DNA of 64,000 bases from a virus (Duplodnaviria > Caudoviricetes), in IMG/VR virus record IMGVR_UViG_3300013121_000047, positions 121,442 through 185,441 of that record; one strand, 5' to 3'. The notes beneath the pieces are model-generated. The model searched no databases. It saw only the letters and a program-made list of their open reading frames with translations, and was not told the origin of the DNA. Positions 22,819-53,225 of the stretch are shown here, one piece after another. The first letter of the stretch is position 1, and the number at the start of each line of letters is the position of its first letter. Position numbers and translations under genes: made by a program.

Positions 22819-23996
22819 CCTATAAGGGAATCCTTTTCAGTTAAATCTTTAACTTGTTTCCAACCTTTATCTGTTTGAACTAGATGATCTTCAGTAAGTT
22901 CAACAGTTTTACCATTTTCTACTTGAATTTTATAGACTTCTTTTTCTCCGTTTTCAACTTTAAAAAAGTCAGAACTATATTGAACTTCTCCAACATTGTC
23001 AACATAAGCAAGTTTATCCATTTCAGAAATATCTGAATATTTTTTCCACCCAGAGTTTGTTAACAATAAAGTTGCTTCTGTAAAACAAGACTTAATCTGT
23101 TTAAACAAGACCTTAATACTTGCTTCTAGTTGTGGATAATCTTCTAGCAATTGGTTAAATGTTGGTGAATTTTTCGCCGCACTTTCATAAGAAAGAAACC
23201 ACACACCACGATCAAATCCATCTTGTTTCTTGTCTTCGTCTAAAGTTTCTTTTTCAATTTTTTGAGTAATTGGATTAATAATTTCAAATGGAATTTGATA
23301 TAATCTCGCCAGGTCTTTTATAAGAGATTTTAATTGAAGTTGGTTGTAGTTTGAAACAGGAAGCACGGATTCTTCTCCAAAATGTTCAGTTAATATTTTG
23401 ATTGCCTCTTCTCTGTCTGCGCAATCGCTATTGTGACTCACGATTTCAGTTCCTACCGACGAATAAATAACAAAATAAGAACCATCGACGGTTATATCAA
23501 CAACGCTTACTTCTTCGCATGTAGATGGATTAAATCTTAATATATCTGATATAATACATCCTTTAGAAGAATCTGTATTCAATAACTGTGTATCTTTTTT
23601 AAGATCTTTAATCTTAATATCTACTCCAAATTCATTTGGCAATCTATGGTTTTCGGTTGCTATGATGAAATCATTTTTTGAATTGAAATAAATCTGAAAT
23701 AAAGGCTCATTATAATTTAATTTCCTTGTTTTCGTATACAATACTTTTCGTAAAAAACCTGATGGATCAATGATAAAATCACCAGGAATTAATTCTGATA
23801 TAGGAATTTTACCTTTAGGAGTTTTTACCAATGTCGAAGGTATTAAACAATCTATATCAGGCAAAGAATTATGTGTTAAAAAAAATTTACCATCAATTTT
23901 ATCACTGACATAAAATGTTTGATCATTCTCTATTCCAATATCTATTAAAAGAATAGGAGATTCAGATTCTATCACTTTTATTTTTTTGATCTTCAT
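22809..23996 (-). CDS. dnaE: DNA polymerase III alpha, fragment 3 (IntC, SLPDID, cis intein, extein, IntN)
   Basis: ...FFLTHN|SLPDID|CLIPSTLV...VSHN|SDCADREEAI...KDLARL...KQIKS|CFTEATLL...LTEDHLV. Confidence 0.92.
   Translation of the reverse strand: MKIKKIKVIESESPILLIDIGIENDQTFYVSDKIDGKFFLTHNSLPDIDCLIPSTLVKTPKGKIPISELIPGDFIIDPSGFLRKVLYTKTRKLNYNEPLFQIYFNSKNDFIIATENHRLPNEFGVDIKIKDLKKDTQLLNTDSSKGCIISDILRFNPSTCEEVSVVDITVDGSYFVIYSSVGTEIVSHNSDCADREEAIKILTEHFGEESVLPVSNYNQLQLKSLIKDLARLYQIPFEIINPITQKIEKETLDEDKKQDGFDRGVWFLSYESAAKNSPTFNQLLEDYPQLEASIKVLFKQIKSCFTEATLLLTNSGWKKYSDISEMDKLAYVDNVGEVQYSSDFFKVENGEKEVYKIQVENGKTVELTEDHLVQTDKGWKQVKDLTEKDSLIGWI
23430..23849 (-). other. Cis mini-intein (140 aa) within dnaE fragment 3
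   Basis: CLIPSTLV start, ATENHRL block B, VVDITV block F, VSHN|S end. Confidence 0.9.
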
Positions 23997-24897
23997 ATTT
24001 TACGACTAGTTCCTTTGATTTTTTATAGTTTCTTTGTTCAAGATTTGGAATCTTCAACCAAATTTCTGCTAATTTTAAGCCAGCAATAAATTCCTTCTGT
24101 GTTATTGTGATAATATTAAAATCAGCAGCAACAACGCTTTGTTTTGATAAATTTTTTGTCATTAAAATTTCAAAAGGTTTACCCGTATTTTCGACACCTT
24201 TTAATTCTACAAATAAATTCAAGTCTGGAAGAAAAAAATCTGGTGTATATGCTCCATTTTTAGTTGGAAACGTTTTAGATTCATATCGATATTTTATGTT
24301 AAAAAAATTAAGAACTCTTGCAAAATCTGCTTCTAGTGCACTTTTAAAATAATCACTAAATCCTAAATCAATTCTATATCCTGTTCTTCCATTTAAATGG
24401 ATTTTAATTTTTCCATTAGATTGATCAGTAAATTGACATTTTCTACTACAACGAATGATATGATTATCAGATTTTTTAACTTGAAATATTTTTTTACATG
24501 TTACACAAATTTTCGTTATTCTATTAGAATTATTAAAACATTCTCTTGAACAATATAATTTGTTAATTCGACTAGGTTTTGCTTTAAATGCTTTGTTACA
24601 ATTCAAACAAATTTTTATTATTGTTTTTATTTGGCTATTGTTTTTACAAATTATAGAACAAAATGTTCTATTGCTACTTGTATAGGTTACAAACTGTGTA
24701 TTACAATAATTGCATTTTTTATTAATTTTTCCCTCTTCTTTCTTTCTACCGAAAAGGTTTTTACATTTTTCTGTGCAAAATACTCTTCTTAAACAATTTC
24801 TGTTTCCGCGACTTTTTATTTCGGGTACAGTTATTAAAAACTGAGTTTTGCATTCTTTACAAGATTTCAATAAATTCGTCTGTATTTTTGATTTCAT
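23962..24897 (-). CDS. Free-standing putative homing endonuclease (four Zn-ribbon repeats plus PD-(D/E)xK domain)
   Basis: CxxC...FC/YCxxxC repeats; [10 protein letters not shown]...YE...YTPDFFL...FVELKG; overlaps dnaE fragments 2 and 3. Confidence 0.75.
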
Positions 24898-47389: not shown

Positions 47390-47860
47390 TTAGTTTGATA
47401 ATTCTCCTGTATCCGAGAAAATGTTCGGATACTTCTTATTTTCCTGTTTCATACTCTTAAAAATTTGTTCTTTTTCTAACCAAGCTTGATATATTAGAAT
47501 ATACAAAAATAAAACATTTTTAGTTGCATCTCCGAGGTCATCTATATTAGTTTTATATTTGACAACTAACAAACGTTCAACCGCATCGAAAAATGGATAT
47601 GCAACATTTTTTCTAAATTCCTCTTCGTTTATTGAATAAATCTTATAAAATTCAGTGGTGGAAATATCCATACAAGATTTTATAAAATCACTAAAAGATT
47701 TATAATCTTCACCTTGAAGACCACATAAAACAATTTTAATTGCCTTTTCTTTATTTTCTAGAGAAAACGTATAATTTCCAGCAAGGAGTTTATGCTCTAG
47801 TGTTTTATTATCTTTTGATGTTATAAAAATATCAAATGGCATCATTGAATCTTTTACCAT
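47390..47860 (-). CDS. Hypothetical protein
   Basis: 156-aa ORF. Confidence 0.6.
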   Translation of the reverse strand: MVKDSMMPFDIFITSKDNKTLEHKLLAGNYTFSLENKEKAIKIVLCGLQGEDYKSFSDFIKSCMDISTTEFYKIYSINEEEFRKNVAYPFFDAVERLLVVKYKTNIDDLGDATKNVLFLYILIYQAWLEKEQIFKSMKQENKKYPNIFSDTGELSN

Positions 47861-47863
47861 AAT

Positions 47864-48328
47864 TTAAACTCCTGAAGAGCCAAATCCTTTTTGGCCTCGT
47901 GAGGTTTCACTTATCGAGTCTGTAAACGATAAACTTATTTCACTTGGGAGTGCATCAATTTTATAAATTATAAGTTGTGCTATTTTGTCGCCAATTTTAA
48001 ATGTATAAGGTTGATTACTATTATTGTTCATAATACATTTTATTTCTCCTCGATATGAAATATCAATAATGCCACCAGTTGGCACTATTCTTTTTAGTGC
48101 TAAACCAGAACGTCCCTCAATTTTTAAAAAACGAGAAATGTTGTCAGTTGTTTTAACATCTGCAAGTTGCAGACCAGTTGGAATTGCACGAGTTTCCCAA
48201 GGAAGCAATGTTATTTCTTCAGAAGAACATAAATCAAAAGCAGCATCATTTTCATGTGCTTTTTTTGGTAAAAAATTTAATTCAGGATTTGGATGTATAG
48301 CAGTTTGCTTGAACTGTATTTCTATCAT
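47864..48328 (-). CDS. dut: dUTPase
   Basis: AAFDL, GRSGLA, GIIDISYRGE, KIAQL, RGQKGFGSSG. Confidence 0.93.
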   Translation of the reverse strand: MIEIQFKQTAIHPNPELNFLPKKAHENDAAFDLCSSEEITLLPWETRAIPTGLQLADVKTTDNISRFLKIEGRSGLALKRIVPTGGIIDISYRGEIKCIMNNNSNQPYTFKIGDKIAQLIIYKIDALPSEISLSFTDSISETSRGQKGFGSSGV

Positions 48329-48337
48329 AGTTCAGCA

Positions 48338-48366
48338 ACTATAGCCCATGATTTCACGAAGAGCAA
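48338..48366 (-). promoter_or_regulatory. Sigma70-like promoter for dut
   Basis: TTGCTC-17 bp-TATAGT, 9 nt before ATG. Confidence 0.5.
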
Positions 48367-48384
48367 TTCTCGAAAGTATTTCCC

Positions 48385-49287
48385 TTAATCCACACTGTGC
48401 TCGTCAATTGCTGTTGCACTTGCAGCCGTTAATGTATCCTTTTCACTATCTTTTAAGATGTAACAACCATCGCAAAGCATAAAAATATACTGATTAAATT
48501 TTTCATCATTGATGATATTGCAAAAATCAGATTTATAGAAATTTTTATCTACTTTAATTTCACCAGTTAAACAGTCAACTAATTCAATTTTTTTCCAGGC
48601 ACCAGCTCCAGAAATTACCGCAACGATACCATTTATTGAATATTTTTCACGATTTTCTTTAAATTTTGGGGAATCACAAAACACCCTTAAGTCATCAAAC
48701 AAAATTTCGTAGTCATTTATTCCTTTATCATATATTATTTGCAATTCTGCTTGCCGATATGGTCTTGCAACTTTATTTTTTATTGTTGCAACCCTTACCT
48801 GAATACCTTTAATAATTTCTTGTTTGTCTATTGTTTCTTTGATTTTTTGAGGAGTATAGACACGCAATCTAACAGAAGCAGCAAAAGGAATTGCCATTCC
48901 GCCTGGGGTCGTTGTATTGTGGTTAATATGACCCTCTGCTATATAATTATGCGTATCTTCTACACATAAATCTAAAACTTCTATTGGCTCATTAACCAAT
49001 TTTGCCAATGGATGATCTTTTAATTTGACCCATTTATTTTTATAAAAAACTTTATGTTCAGCAGTTCCTTTTAAAGAACCTAGTCGGTAATGGGTTTCAC
49101 TTTTATTTTTAACAACTAAATCAGTTATTTTTTTCCAACATTTTGTTTTAGTTTTAATGTCATAACTTTCAATTTCGATTTCATTATCTTCAATATTAAG
49201 CATTCCAACTTCGTCAAATGATTGAAGGCCATTTTCTTGAAATAGTTGTTTAAATGTTACTGTTTCTTCTTTATATTTTTTTTCCAT
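48385..49287 (-). CDS. recA: RecA/UvsX C-terminal fragment fused to the 124-aa C half of an atypically split intein
   Basis: GTAEHKV block B, VLDLCVEDTHNY, INHN|TTTPGGMAIPFAASVRLRV, KNKVARPYR. Confidence 0.9.
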   Translation of the reverse strand: MEKKYKEETVTFKQLFQENGLQSFDEVGMLNIEDNEIEIESYDIKTKTKCWKKITDLVVKNKSETHYRLGSLKGTAEHKVFYKNKWVKLKDHPLAKLVNEPIEVLDLCVEDTHNYIAEGHINHNTTTPGGMAIPFAASVRLRVYTPQKIKETIDKQEIIKGIQVRVATIKNKVARPYRQAELQIIYDKGINDYEILFDDLRVFCDSPKFKENREKYSINGIVAVISGAGAWKKIELVDCLTGEIKVDKNFYKSDFCNIINDEKFNQYIFMLCDGCYILKDSEKDTLTAASATAIDEHSVD

Positions 49288-50275
49288 TTACAAAATCCTT
49301 TATTTTTTCTGTTGTATTTTCTTTTCTATTTATTATTTCGTCTTCCCAAAGAATTAATATTTCATATCCTAAATTCTCTAATTGTTGTTGTCTAGAGGCA
49401 TCTTTTTCTCTTATTTGTTTTACTGTGAGGTCTCTTTTTATTATTTCATTTTCATTTAGGTAAAATTTAGGATTTGCGTGCCAGTAATCTCCATAGCATT
49501 CGATAATTTGCTTGCAATTGTTTAGTATAAAATCAGGAAAAAAAGAATTTTCTAAATCAAAAATATTTTGTTCATAAACCCAATTTATTCTTAAATCATT
49601 TAAAATATTTGCTACAATATACTCAATTTTATTCATTTTAACATCATTGACAATATAATTTTTCGGAACATTTAAAGAAAATTTATTAGTTTTCCATAAA
49701 AATTTTGAGTGCTCAGATATTTTTTTTATTCGTTCTGGTTTATTACACGCAATTTTTAATTTTTCTTTTCCACCGTTATTTAGCCATTTTTTAAACGAAT
49801 TAATTCTCTTACTTTTAGTAAGTGGATTATGCATAATTTCATACATTTTCATTTTAAAAACAGGATCTTTATATCGCTCTTTTTTTAATTTAGAATGAAG
49901 TTCTCTATTGTAACTTTCCGACAATTTCTTTTTATATTCAGGTGAAGATATAGCTTTTTTATGATTTTCTTTCATTTTCTGATTTAAAATTTGAAGATAG
50001 TCTCTAATCAATTTTTGATCAAAATCAGAAACAGGAAATTCTTTTAAATAAAAAGAAAATCTATTTTCTTTATTAAAGAACTTTTTATAAAAATTATAAA
50101 TTTCTGATGCTTTTTCTTCGCCAAAATGAAAAATAAAGTAATCTATCGACGAAGTTGAAATAGGCATATTGGTTTTTCCAATAGCTTTCCCTTTCAAAAA
50201 TTCAGATTTTACTGTTATTTTAATTTTAGGAATATTATTTTTAATTTGAAATTTAAAATCAAAATATTTTTTCAT
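49271..50275 (-). CDS. Free-standing Vsr/DUF559-like homing endonuclease inside fractured recA
   Basis: FPDF...IIECYGDYWHANP...D..R...LGYEILILWE. Confidence 0.8.
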   Translation of the reverse strand: MKKYFDFKFQIKNNIPKIKITVKSEFLKGKAIGKTNMPISTSSIDYFIFHFGEEKASEIYNFYKKFFNKENRFSFYLKEFPVSDFDQKLIRDYLQILNQKMKENHKKAISSPEYKKKLSESYNRELHSKLKKERYKDPVFKMKMYEIMHNPLTKSKRINSFKKWLNNGGKEKLKIACNKPERIKKISEHSKFLWKTNKFSLNVPKNYIVNDVKMNKIEYIVANILNDLRINWVYEQNIFDLENSFFPDFILNNCKQIIECYGDYWHANPKFYLNENEIIKRDLTVKQIREKDASRQQQLENLGYEILILWEDEIINRKENTTEKIKDFVNGKKI

Positions 50276-50284
50276 TTTAAAAAT

Positions 50285-51073
50285 TTATTTTACGATTTTT
50301 CTTATTTTTATTTTAGTATCTGGGGATACACATGGATCTGATCCTATCACTCCAATTTTTTGTCTCGTTTGGTTAACTAAAATTAGTGTAACTCTTTTAT
50401 CTTTTAGAATTTGGTTGACCTTCATTATACCTTTGCTAAGGGCTCTAGCTTTAATTCCAATTTGCTGTTGTTCGTAAGTGGCTTCTAGCTCTGTTCTGGA
50501 AACAGAAGCCGCTATTGAGTCCCATACGATGATTATGGGCATATTGTTGTCTTGGTTTTTGACAGAGGTAATAATCTGCTCTATCATTTGAAATGTGTCT
50601 TCTATACATTGTTCTTGTACGAAAATTAATTCATTAACATCAACCCCAAGCATAGATAAATTTTCTATTGACGTTGCGTTTTCAGAATCAATATAAACTG
50701 CAATTGCACCATTTTTTTGAGCTTGAGCACAGATGGTTTGTGCTAGTGTAGATTTACCAGAAGATGGTTCTCCAAAAACTTCTATAATTCTACCTTCTGG
50801 TATTCCTCCATTTCTTTTATTCGAAATAATATAATCTAATTTAATTGCGGAAGTTGAAAACCAATTTTTTACGTATGTTGGAGCATCATCGTCTGTTTTA
50901 AGATTAAACGCGATCTTCTCTCCTCGGGTTTTATTTATCTCTTTTGTTATTCCAGAAATTATTGCCATTTTTTTTGAAGCGATAGCTGGTTGTGAATTGT
51001 TTGTATCAATAGTTTGACCTACTTTTGGAACGAGCGCTACTTCTTGCTTATTACTTTTTTTTATATTTGCCAT
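50285..51073 (-). CDS. recA: RecA/UvsX N-terminal fragment plus 15-aa IntN
   Basis: GGIPEGRIIEVFGEPSSGKST, YIDSENA, VWDSIA, VNQTRQKIGVIGSDP|CVSPDTKIKIRKIVK*. Confidence 0.92.
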   Translation of the reverse strand: MANIKKSNKQEVALVPKVGQTIDTNNSQPAIASKKMAIISGITKEINKTRGEKIAFNLKTDDDAPTYVKNWFSTSAIKLDYIISNKRNGGIPEGRIIEVFGEPSSGKSTLAQTICAQAQKNGAIAVYIDSENATSIENLSMLGVDVNELIFVQEQCIEDTFQMIEQIITSVKNQDNNMPIIIVWDSIAASVSRTELEATYEQQQIGIKARALSKGIMKVNQILKDKRVTLILVNQTRQKIGVIGSDPCVSPDTKIKIRKIVK

Positions 51074-51127
51074 TTGTTCTTTCTCTTATTATTATTTCTT
51101 TATTATGTTTTACAATAGATAAAAATA

Positions 51128-51154
51128 AAGCCAAGTAATTTTGTTACCTGGCTT
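51128..51154 (-). terminator. Rho-independent terminator after ssb
   Basis: AAGCCAGGTAA-CAAAA-TTACTTGGCTT followed by TATTTTT on the minus strand. Confidence 0.7.
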
Positions 51155-51182
51155 CAAAGTTAACACTTAGCTAAGTGTTTTT

Positions 51183-52079
51183 TTATTCGGTTGCAATTTT
51201 TTTAATTGCAGCTTTCGCTTTCAAAGCGTTAAGTTTTTCAATTGCTGCGGCAGTACTGCTAACCGATGTGGTTGTAAACTTTGCATTTTTCTGTTCGTCC
51301 GTTTCTATTACAACACCTTCTGATAAAGAGGTTTGCTCAACAGATTGTGAAGTCGCTCCATTAACTTCTAAGTTTTTTGCTTCATAAAAAGCATCTAAAG
51401 TTTTTCTTAAATTTTCCGCGGTTTTAACAAACCCTCTTTGAATTTCTAAAATTTTTGGAGCGCTTTCTAAAAGTTTTGTTCTTTCTTCTTCGGTTTTAGC
51501 CAACGGCGAAGGACTAATTCTTATATTAAAGGAATAAGCTCTTACTGGTTTATTATTCCATAATTTAGCTTTTCCAGAATTATCTGTTTTTGCAGAAACA
51601 GTGATTTCAAAATCATATCCATTAACAGGATCAAAAACATCTTTATCTTGGTAATCTTCAGCTTGAAGTGCATTGTAAATCATGTCCCGAACATCTTTCG
51701 AGAATTCGAATACCTGAATTCCAGCAGCTTCATTTCCTCTATCTAAGAGGCACCCAAAGTATGTTTCTCCAGCTTTTAAATCCTTTGCAATATTCCAATT
51801 ATCTTTTCTAATTGCATCATATTCTTCTTTTATAGGATCTTGTAAATCGAATTGATAAGGAGCAACAAATCGCTTATTTTTTTCTAAATTTCTATAAAAA
51901 AGAACTTCGTAAAATGGTTCATCTGTTACGTTATCAGATGGTTGAATAAATCGAACTTTATATTTTTTACCAATTTCAGGTTTCCATGATGGATAAGCAG
52001 GTATAAATTCTGTTTTTGTAAATCTTGGTTTTGGTGTAAGTTTATCTTTTATTGCTTGTAAGTATTTTGGTTGTGTCAT
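51183..52079 (-). CDS. Single-stranded DNA-binding protein (gp32-like)
   Basis: WKP...VRFI...PF...DPI...GIQVFEF...DVFDPVNGYDF; next to recA. Confidence 0.7.
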   Translation of the reverse strand: MTQPKYLQAIKDKLTPKPRFTKTEFIPAYPSWKPEIGKKYKVRFIQPSDNVTDEPFYEVLFYRNLEKNKRFVAPYQFDLQDPIKEEYDAIRKDNWNIAKDLKAGETYFGCLLDRGNEAAGIQVFEFSKDVRDMIYNALQAEDYQDKDVFDPVNGYDFEITVSAKTDNSGKAKLWNNKPVRAYSFNIRISPSPLAKTEEERTKLLESAPKILEIQRGFVKTAENLRKTLDAFYEAKNLEVNGATSQSVEQTSLSEGVVIETDEQKNAKFTTTSVSSTAAAIEKLNALKAKAAIKKIATE

Positions 52080-52196: not shown

Positions 52197-53225
52197 TTAC
52201 GCATTAGATCTTTCTATTTTTGCATATATTTTGAATATATCAAACTCTAAAAATAGAGAGTTTTTTAGTTCAAAACTTGGTTTGGCATAAAACAATAAGG
52301 CATCATGAATTACAAAAAGTGGATTGATATTATGTACATTTTTTTCTAAAAAAATGCTTAATAACATTAAAGATAAATCAGCAGCAGTGCTCTGTATGTA
52401 ATAGTTTACAATCATATAATCCTGAAAATTAGAATTTTGTATTTGGTCTTTTGAAATTATAGGTTTTCCGAAAAAATTATATAGTTGTCCATTGGTGTAA
52501 AGCTGATTGTGTAGATCTTGTTTGAAATTTATAAACTTATCATTCAAAAGAAAATTTTCCAAACATAAATTTTCTTCTAAATTAGTTTCTTTTATATGAT
52601 CTAAATTTGATCCATATAAAATTTTTAGAACTGCTAGTTTAATACTCGCTCTATCAGTTGCTTCTAATTTTAATTTATGTTTAATTGAAGAATAAAGATC
52701 TGAATAATCTAAGTCAGAATAACCTAAAATTTGAAATAAAACACTTGGTTCTAAGGCCGAAAAATCCAAAAGATTTAGATTTTTATCCGAAAATATTTTT
52801 TTTCGATCTTCTTTTTTTAAAGTTAAAATTTGTGGTCCATGATTAATTCTCTGTCTGCCAGTTGTGGATAAAATTCTGTCATATTGAGGAATATCAACAT
52901 TTGTTGAAAATGAATCAATTATATTATAATTTCGTTTATCTTCGTTAAGTTTGTATATTTCCAGAAGTTCTTTTAAACTATCTTTATCTACAAATTCTTC
53001 GGCGGATTCCAAATGCTCTAAAATAAAATTAGACTTTTTATAAAAGTCAAAGTAATAGTTTTTGCATTTTTCATAGGTGGGAATAGATTCTAGAATTTTA
53101 GAGAAATTCAAATTCTTTAGTATGAAATGTTCAACCTCTGAGTCGGAATCTAAATTTAGATCATAGCAAATCTTTTCTATTTTGTCGGCAACTGGTGTTC
53201 TCAACAATCTCAAAAAAGTAAACAT
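52197..53225 (-). CDS. Minimal family A DNA polymerase domain
   Basis: TTGRQ, motif A LDFSALEP, motif B R..IK...ILYG, NYYIQSTAAD, motif C VIHDAL. Confidence 0.8.
   Translation of the reverse strand: MFTFLRLLRTPVADKIEKICYDLNLDSDSEVEHFILKNLNFSKILESIPTYEKCKNYYFDFYKKSNFILEHLESAEEFVDKDSLKELLEIYKLNEDKRNYNIIDSFSTNVDIPQYDRILSTTGRQRINHGPQILTLKKEDRKKIFSDKNLNLLDFSALEPSVLFQILGYSDLDYSDLYSSIKHKLKLEATDRASIKLAVLKILYGSNLDHIKETNLEENLCLENFLLNDKFINFKQDLHNQLYTNGQLYNFFGKPIISKDQIQNSNFQDYMIVNYYIQSTAADLSLMLLSIFLEKNVHNINPLFVIHDALLFYAKPSFELKNSLFLEFDIFKIYAKIERSNA

Follow-up and report, generated by a model that had tools for sequence, protein, structure and literature searches.

A recA gene of an uncultured phage fractured at a predicted S1-split mini-intein with a Vsr-like nuclease gene in the break

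The recA gene of a very large uncultured phage is broken in two at an intein, and its two products are predicted to be rejoined by protein trans-splicing. The gene occupies positions 48385-51073 of a window of 64,000 nucleotides (nt), the last 64 kb of the metagenome-derived IMG/VR record IMGVR_UViG_3300013121_000047 (185,441 nt, G+C content 31%, completeness estimated by CheckV at about 51%). Contigs of relatives that carry the same locus reach up to 391 kb, and the source is therefore a very large phage. Three tightly packed open reading frames (ORFs) on the minus strand make up the locus. We assign a probability of roughly 85% to the reading that recA is a fractured gene that would be rejoined at the protein level by a class-1 mini-intein split at the S1 site into a short N-terminal (IntN) and a long C-terminal fragment (IntC), with a nuclease gene lying in the break. 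The ORFs and the features within them, in window coordinates and with lengths in amino acids (aa), are as follows:

50285-51073, minus strand: ORF1, 262 aa, ending in ...KIGVIGSDP and then CVSPDTKIKIRKIVK and a stop
50333..51073, minus strand: recA N-extein, 247 aa, with the Walker A motif GEPSSGKST and the C-terminal end ...NQTRQKIGVIGSDP; matches Pfam RecA and PHROG 97
50288..50332, minus strand: IntN, 15 aa, CVSPDTKIKIRKIVK, with its TAA stop at 50285-50287
49271-50275, minus strand: ORF2, 334 aa, the nuclease
49271..50275, minus strand: free-standing, homing-endonuclease-like nuclease gene, 334 aa; matches DUF559 and PHROG 13076
49274..49573, minus strand: Vsr-like (EDxHD-type) catalytic domain, nuclease residues ~235-334
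48385-49287, minus strand: ORF3, 300 aa, beginning MEKKYKEE, containing TAEH and reading ...AEGHINHN and then TTTPGGMAIPF...
48916..49287, minus strand: IntC, 124 aa, with blocks B, F and G
48388..48915, minus strand: recA C-extein, 176 aa, opening with Thr+1, TTTPGGMAIPFAASVRL..., with its stop at 48385-48387

Both outer ORFs are recognized by the Pfam RecA model, positions 7-203 of which are found in ORF1 (E 1.3e-38) and positions 199-262 in ORF3 (E 7.6e-13), bearing out the original prediction of a RecA N-terminal part with a 15-residue IntN, a nuclease and an IntC joined to the C-terminal part of RecA. The N-extein in addition matches PHROG 97, a UvsX-like recombinase, with an E value of 1.6e-51. 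Comparison with P0004, an intein-less allele of 422 aa from another assembly (Logan), indicates how the two parts fit together: residues 1-246 of this allele are covered by the N-extein (90% identity), residues 247-422 by the C-extein (94% identity), and the exteins abut exactly, with not a single residue missing or extra at the junction. The extein sum of 247+176=423 aa, given correctly in the original prediction as the spliced length, compares with the 422 aa of P0004. A second intein-less relative, P0038, reads GSDPTTTPGG across the site, and the insertion point lies between the Pro and the Thr of GSDP / TTTPGG. In an alignment with E. coli RecA the break is placed at KIGVMFGNP / ETTTGG, inside loop L2, which we take to comprise residues 195-209 in the standard numbering; the region originally proposed for the insertion was also that of L2. 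In the whole 185-kb record RecA matches are confined to ORF1 and ORF3. Tblastn matches starting 20 residues into the intein were also obtained in mycobacteriophages (Bask21, Kostya and others) as candidates for an intein at the same site; these were rejected, the overhang being judged due to chance because the annotated gene in these phages is an intein-less RecA of 320 aa.

The intein halves carry the residues needed for splicing. A cysteine, Cys1, stands directly after the last extein residue (GSDP then C) and recurs in every homologous IntN tail seen. In IntC, block B reads T75-A-E-H78, block F VLDLCVEDTHNY and block G H123-N124, and the fragment ends in ...VLDLCVEDTHNYIAEGHINHN followed by Thr+1, so that the predicted IntC of 124 aa with TAEH, the end NHN / TTTPGG and Thr at +1 is what ORF3 reads; the end of the Pfam Intein_splicing model matches residues 99-124 of this ORF. 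About 55 database proteins of 295-345 aa share the IntC-RecA-C build. In the 30 such homologues that were aligned T75, H78, D106 of block F, H123 and N124 are invariant at a mean column identity of 51%, and Thr follows HN in 30 of the 30; the Thr and His of block B are likewise invariant in a separate alignment of 15 inteins. IntN tails in 13 distinct related split loci are mostly 14-18 aa long and all open with C-[VL]-x-P-[DE]-T, and close relatives with an IntN of only 14 residues exist. Moreover, the two halves are oppositely charged, as had been noticed originally: the net charge is +4 in IntN and -7 over the 45 residues with which IntC begins, and the homologues are alike, with +3 to +4 for IntN (seven members computed) and -4 to -11 for the first 45 residues of IntC. 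With Cys1, the TxxH of block B, blocks F and G, the HN pair, Thr+1 and seamless exteins the element is, judged by its sequence, a class-1 intein, for which splicing itself is predicted. When the 185-kb record was searched with a hidden Markov model (HMM) of the family, no further intein belonging to it came to light, and a weak HMM match at genome positions 96173-97063 (E 0.002) was set aside as it is devoid of intein motifs.

Where within the intein fold does the break fall? The intein of a relative, locus L006, is contiguous and 65% identical to the window IntC. AlphaFold, supplied with the family alignment, models it as a HINT fold with a predicted local distance difference test (pLDDT) score of 96.2, a value that refers to the contiguous homologue and not to the split pair. 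A Foldseek search with this model yielded 36 matches in the PDB at E<=0.001, and all 40-odd listed entries are inteins or intein-like (BIL, Vint) domains; rank 2 is held by the VidaL intein (6vgv) with a probability of 1.00. In the model, residues 7-14 and 18-25 form strands and residues 26-33 a helix, and the stop and restart of the window's intein align to the turn 15-17 between the two strands, IntN corresponding to strands β1-β2 of the folded L006 intein. S1, the site at which VidaL and PolB16 are divided, is situated directly after strand β2 and before helix α1 (PMC13014065). According to the model the break in the window is this S1 site, in the hairpin after strand β2, and the element is an atypically split intein of the S1 type, with an IntN of 15 aa and an IntC of 124 aa on separate ORFs.

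The gene in the break had been described as encoding a 334-aa Vsr/DUF559-like nuclease, with which the profile searches agree. The protein matches Pfam DUF559 with 27.3 bits (gathering cut-off 20.6) and PHROG 13076, an endonuclease, and its residues 246-326 match the E. coli Vsr structures 1vsr, 1odg and 1cw0 (phmmer, E 2-3e-4). Residues D248, E259, D263, H266 and D292 are invariant in 7 nuclease homologues. These five residues fall on positions of the Vsr active site that are named in PMC2677866: D248, H266 and D292 coincide with the Asp, His and Asp of the Vsr motifs RPDF, FWH and ERD, respectively, and E259 with a Phe seven residues ahead of the catalytic His of Vsr; the aligned Vsr positions are D51, F62, H69 and D97 (numbering quoted in PMC2677866). 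Together they make up the EDxHD signature of the I-Bth0305I family (PMC3239194; PMC2677866). I-Bth0305I is itself a homing endonuclease in a phage recA (PMC3239194) and resembles the window nuclease in that its catalytic domain, at the C-terminus, is Vsr-like with conserved E, D, H and D and is preceded by a long N-terminal DNA-binding region, the latter presumed for the window nuclease; unlike it, I-Bth0305I is encoded by a group I intron and not between intein halves, and its structure gave no direct sequence match with the window nuclease in a PDB search at E<=1. The N-terminal 240 aa of the window nuclease, which are presumed to bind DNA, have no profile match in a Pfam search that did not include the NUMOD models; by eye, three lysine-rich, NUMOD-resembling repeats can be seen (SPEYKKKLSES, NPLTKSKRINS, KPERIKKISEH; 'NPE-x-KKIS'-like or 'xPE-x-KKKxS'-like). 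Homologues of 34-48% identity occupy the same break in loci L003/4, L009, L012 and L026-29. The gene is probably a selfish, homing-endonuclease-like passenger with predicted activity. Its target may be a contiguous mini-intein allele rather than the intein-less recA that the original prediction had in mind: since close relatives have nuclease-less contiguous mini-inteins at this RecA site, the most likely target is the contiguous mini-intein allele, or else the empty recA allele.

Two further ORFs of the record match this nuclease. Outside the window, a Vsr-like ORF of 341 aa (genome C1:115259-116284, minus strand; ...EFLGDFWHGN...GYNVVYILEND) matches the recA nuclease with a phmmer E value of 1.2e-4. 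It adjoins a gene for an NAD-dependent epimerase-like protein, a 76-aa copy of the 3' end of which is found 0.6 kb away (C1:113440-113670), a duplication that fits the expectation for nuclease-driven partial gene conversion. Within the window, at 23962-24897 on the minus strand, an ORF of 311 aa, in which CxxC zinc-ribbon repeats are numerous and a PD-(D/E)xK-like motif lies C-terminally, matches the recA nuclease weakly (E 0.015).

Relatives of the locus were confirmed on IMG/VR viral contigs in 257 cases, and the best 80 of the 257 were inspected by script. The same RecA site is empty in most of these loci. It contains a contiguous mini-intein of 133-165 aa in L006, L007, L010 and L024, and in L003/4, L009, L012 and L026-29 an intein split with a Vsr-like gene in the break. 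In a further group the break holds a gene of about 265 aa of the HNH type (L017:1645-2433, L018:3216-4013, L021:833-1630, L022:896-1717), which is unrelated to the Vsr-like gene and has weak matches to Pfam HNH and HNH_2 and the motif ...QADHIKPF...NGRTLCKxCH; all that is left of an HNH gene in the break of L013-15 is a remnant of 55 aa (L013:3133-3300). Three loci (L005, L011 and L020) are split without any nuclease gene, with 51-117 nt between the halves and both intein halves kept. In L003 (3002-4888) and in L004, on a 391-kb contig, the Vsr-like ORF has no stop and continues in frame into IntC-RecA-C, constituting a nuclease-IntC fusion, and IntN is still separate there, as a 17-aa tail in another frame. 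L034/35 resemble a plain frameshift.

A maximum-likelihood tree of 15 inteins, which has few rows and no outgroup and for this reason gives no direction for changes between split and contiguous forms, groups as sisters the window intein with the contiguous L006 (support 99/97), the contiguous L010 with the split L009 (98/94), the nuclease-less L005 with the fused L003 (95/96) and the nuclease-less L020 with the HNH-bearing L022 (95/93). Split and contiguous forms interleave on the tree, so that the break would appear to have been made or mended more than once.

How could an intact recombinase arise from such an arrangement? In the mechanism we propose, a class-1 mini-intein within the L2 codons of recA was cut in two by the free-standing Vsr-like nuclease gene. 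The stop codon of IntN lies 9 nt ahead of the nuclease gene, with which it shares the frame (TAA and the three codons ATT TTT AAA, 50276-50287, minus strand), and IntC begins in the +1 frame at an ATG 17 nt inside the nuclease gene's 3' end; 8 nt upstream of this ATG is an AAGGA. No terminators were found between the three genes. With spacers of 9 nt and -17 nt and no intervening terminator, co-transcription of the three genes is almost certain. Two products would then be translated: RecA(1-247) with the basic 15-aa IntN at its end, and the 124-aa IntC with its acidic head in front of the remaining 176 aa of RecA. IntN would dock as strands β1-β2 on the nearly complete IntC, the opposite charges helping, and in the reconstituted HINT fold the four standard class-1 steps would follow, namely an N-S acyl shift at Cys1, a trans-esterification to Thr+1, cyclization of Asn124 and an O-N shift, yielding a seamless RecA of 423 aa (~47 kDa) with the junction peptide IGVIGSDPTTTPGGMAIPFAASVR. 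The nuclease would have no part in splicing and would serve the spread of the element, cleaving alleles from which it is absent.

Several points weigh against this proposal. Association of the halves, splicing, and the activity and target of the nuclease are deduced from prerequisites at the level of sequence, the target being a guess. The record is only about half complete, which leaves room for a second, intact recA. Promoter-like matches in the region number 22, with 17.4 +/- 4.5 expected, and are therefore not in excess over chance. Finally, the residue at position -1 (codon 50333-50335) is Pro, as it is in L006, L013, L017, L018 and L020-22, other relatives having Ala, Ser, Thr or Met there. 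Pro at -1 is unfavourable for the first splicing step in several characterized inteins.

Four alternatives to trans-splicing together account for nearly all of the remaining probability. The least improbable of them, which we nevertheless consider unlikely, is that the nuclease gene destroyed an intein-containing recA and that the pieces are decaying remnants that are never joined. Invasion by homing endonucleases can inactivate genes, degenerate states do occur among the relatives (the 55-aa HNH remnant in L013-15 and the frameshift-like L034/35) and in an incomplete record another recA could exist. In a dead gene, however, one would not expect all three ORFs to be intact, nor every splicing residue to be kept here and in some 30 homologues despite divergence down to about 40-70% identity. 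Moreover, the exteins are 90-94% identical to the uninterrupted allele with all RecA motifs present, and the split forms without nuclease (L005, L011, L020) retain both intein halves.

Still less probable is that the intein halves act merely as dimerization handles, holding the parts of RecA together without a peptide bond as in the split NrdA of the Aeromonas phage Aeh1. Fragmented phage enzymes that assemble without splicing are documented (PMC3045599), and mere binding would be favoured by the opposite charges on the two intein pieces. On the other hand, 139 extra residues in the DNA-binding loop L2 would be hard to tolerate, and Cys1, His78, His123-Asn124 and Thr+1 are invariant although binding alone would not need them.

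Joining at the level of RNA or translation seems very improbable. It could be imagined that the nuclease gene resides in an intron, that the TAA after IntN is read through or that the ribosome shifts on a run of eight A at the overlap of the nuclease gene and IntC, either of the two recoding routes leading to a precursor that splices in cis. The sequence offers some footholds for recoding: IntN and the nuclease ORF share a frame and are only one TAA and three codons apart, the overlap contains GGAAAAAAAATA with the A8 run (GGAAAAAAAATATAA, window 49271-49290, minus strand), and the reading frame of the nuclease in L003/L004 continues straight into IntC. Yet the nuclease ORF has an ATG of its own and IntC both an ATG and the AAGGA, an in-frame arrangement is expected by chance in one case of three and relatives without a nuclease gene stay split. 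Splicing of the RNA had been named in the original prediction as an outcome that would refute it; an Rfam search of positions 47500-52000, including the group I and group II introns, returned no match at E<=1. As an observation in its own right, read-through or slippage at this locus would yield fusion proteins resembling that of L003, although the arrangement may well be due to chance given the G+C content of 31%. Lastly, an artefact of assembly or sequencing of a contiguous intein, conceivable for a metagenome-derived record, can practically be dismissed, as the break holds an intact nuclease gene of 1 kb and the architecture is met again on numerous independent contigs that come from different samples.

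Trans-splicing by an S1-split intein has precedents, and in this respect the original prediction, which regarded the element as another member of the atypically split inteins known from phage metagenomes, is supported by VidaL and PolB16, which match its kind. The widely used VidaL is listed as 'VidaL UvsX-2' (PMC11923092 supplement, Suppl. Table 5), a name from which it follows that its host, too, is a phage RecA-type recombinase; its IntN has 16 aa and its structure is 6vgv (PMC13014065, citing Neugebauer et al. 2017 and Burton et al. 2020). Like the window intein it is natural and dependent on Cys1, comes from an environmental phage with a RecA/UvsX-type host protein, is broken at S1, combines a short basic IntN (16 versus 15 aa) with an acidic IntC head and has a matching fold. 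Identity in the structural alignment is only 18%, however, and 6vgv was reached neither by phmmer with IntC nor by the family profile at E<=10, but by fold comparison only. Because neither the single sequence nor the profile reaches 6vgv, the window family is, as far as sequence comparison goes, separate from VidaL. A further difference is that splicing was measured for VidaL, whereas for the window intein it is predicted. PolB16 OarG has an IntN of 15 aa that has been called the shortest characterized (PMC10189870), a length that the window intein equals and does not beat; the two also have in common the S1 split, a metagenomic origin and a host protein of DNA metabolism, but PolB16 has Ser1 and Ser+1, a dispensable block B His and a B-family polymerase as host, in contrast to Cys1 and Thr+1, an invariant TxxH and RecA. 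AceL-TerL, GOS-TerL and Cat are more distant in kind. According to PMC13014065 and PMC11766414 (citing Thiel 2014; Bachmann & Mootz 2015; Stevens 2018), these inteins are also natural, derive from phage-like metagenomes and consist of a short IntN (25 aa in AceL-TerL, 37 aa in GOS-TerL) and a long IntC, but are split at S2, after helix α1, with an IntN of 25-37 aa, the terminase large subunit as host and Cys+1.

The layout of the locus is known as well. Fractured genes of environmental phages were described by Dassa, London, Stoddard, Schueler-Furman & Pietrokovski 2009 (PMC2677866), and in these, as in the window, an intein marks the point at which a DNA-metabolism enzyme is broken, the two intein halves flanking a free-standing homing-endonuclease gene, in a phage setting with ORFs tightly packed or overlapping; the nuclease is Vsr-like in half of the loci. 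RecA is not among the fractured enzymes listed there, and UvsX appears only as a neighbouring gene (PMC2677866). Moreover, the inteins of that set that were characterized later (gp41-1, NrdJ-1, IMPDH-1) have the canonical split site, whereas the window nuclease lies at the N-terminal S1 site. A published description of the present RecA-L2 intein family was not found, which is weak evidence since key primary papers lie outside the literature that was searched.

As both the layout (Dassa 2009) and S1-split inteins with a short IntN were known, the window adds a further example, a fractured phage gene in a good state of preservation that specialists would hardly find surprising and that introduces no new principle. 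To protein engineering the family contributes natural S1-split inteins that are unrelated in sequence to VidaL, with an IntN of 14-18 residues, Cys1 and Thr+1, and these could be candidates for VidaL-orthogonal pairs that are accessible by peptide synthesis; natural tolerance of Pro at -1 in this member may also be of interest to engineers. For the evolution of such genes it is of value that a single site is found empty, with a contiguous intein, split with either nuclease family, split without a nuclease and with a nuclease fused to IntC, a series of states that makes the nuclease-capture model of Dassa testable on natural sequences.

Since two unrelated nuclease families, Vsr-like and HNH, use exactly the same break, it could be speculated that free-standing homing-endonuclease genes have landed repeatedly in the S1 hairpin of the RecA-L2 intein family, as a second site of entry beside the canonical site of endonuclease insertion. 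We regard this as possible and rather doubtful. If it were true, the nuclease would parasitize the intein and not recA, and the L003/L004 fusion would be a snapshot of a route to a bifunctional intein with the nuclease in a non-canonical position.

RecA harbours other inteins as well. A second, unrelated intein site is situated six residues upstream in L2 (KIG / C...SHN / T[ML]YGDP). The intein there is contiguous in L031 and L037 and S1-split with an IntN of 14-16 aa in L030, L032/33 and L042 (e.g., CVSPETVVQYRKIQ), and in L030 and L032/33 its break holds a Vsr-like gene with a zinc-ribbon N-terminus. L009 and the protein P0010 have both inteins, with an extein of 6 residues left between them. 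In addition, the N-terminal RecA ORFs of L011 (2035-3897), L018 (1394-3199) and L045/L046 (2246-4570) exceed the expected length by about 350 residues, and their RecA match begins only at query residue ~102-106; the extra length and the late start of the match suggest a further intein near Walker A. RecA in these phages thus seems to have at least three intein sites.

No tRNAs were found in the window. The genes that flank recA form a replication and recombination module, with a DnaB-like helicase, a 5'-3' exonuclease, a dUTPase, a gp32-like single-stranded-DNA-binding protein and a fragment of a family A polymerase. The last of these, an ORF of 342 aa at 52197-53225 on the minus strand, has a match to the family A DNA polymerase model that is restricted to the C-terminal half of that model (positions 155-343, E 4e-5, under the gathering score); the N-terminal part is absent from the adjacent sequence, where two glycosyltransferase genes come next, and the ORF could be a stand-alone or fragmented PolA.

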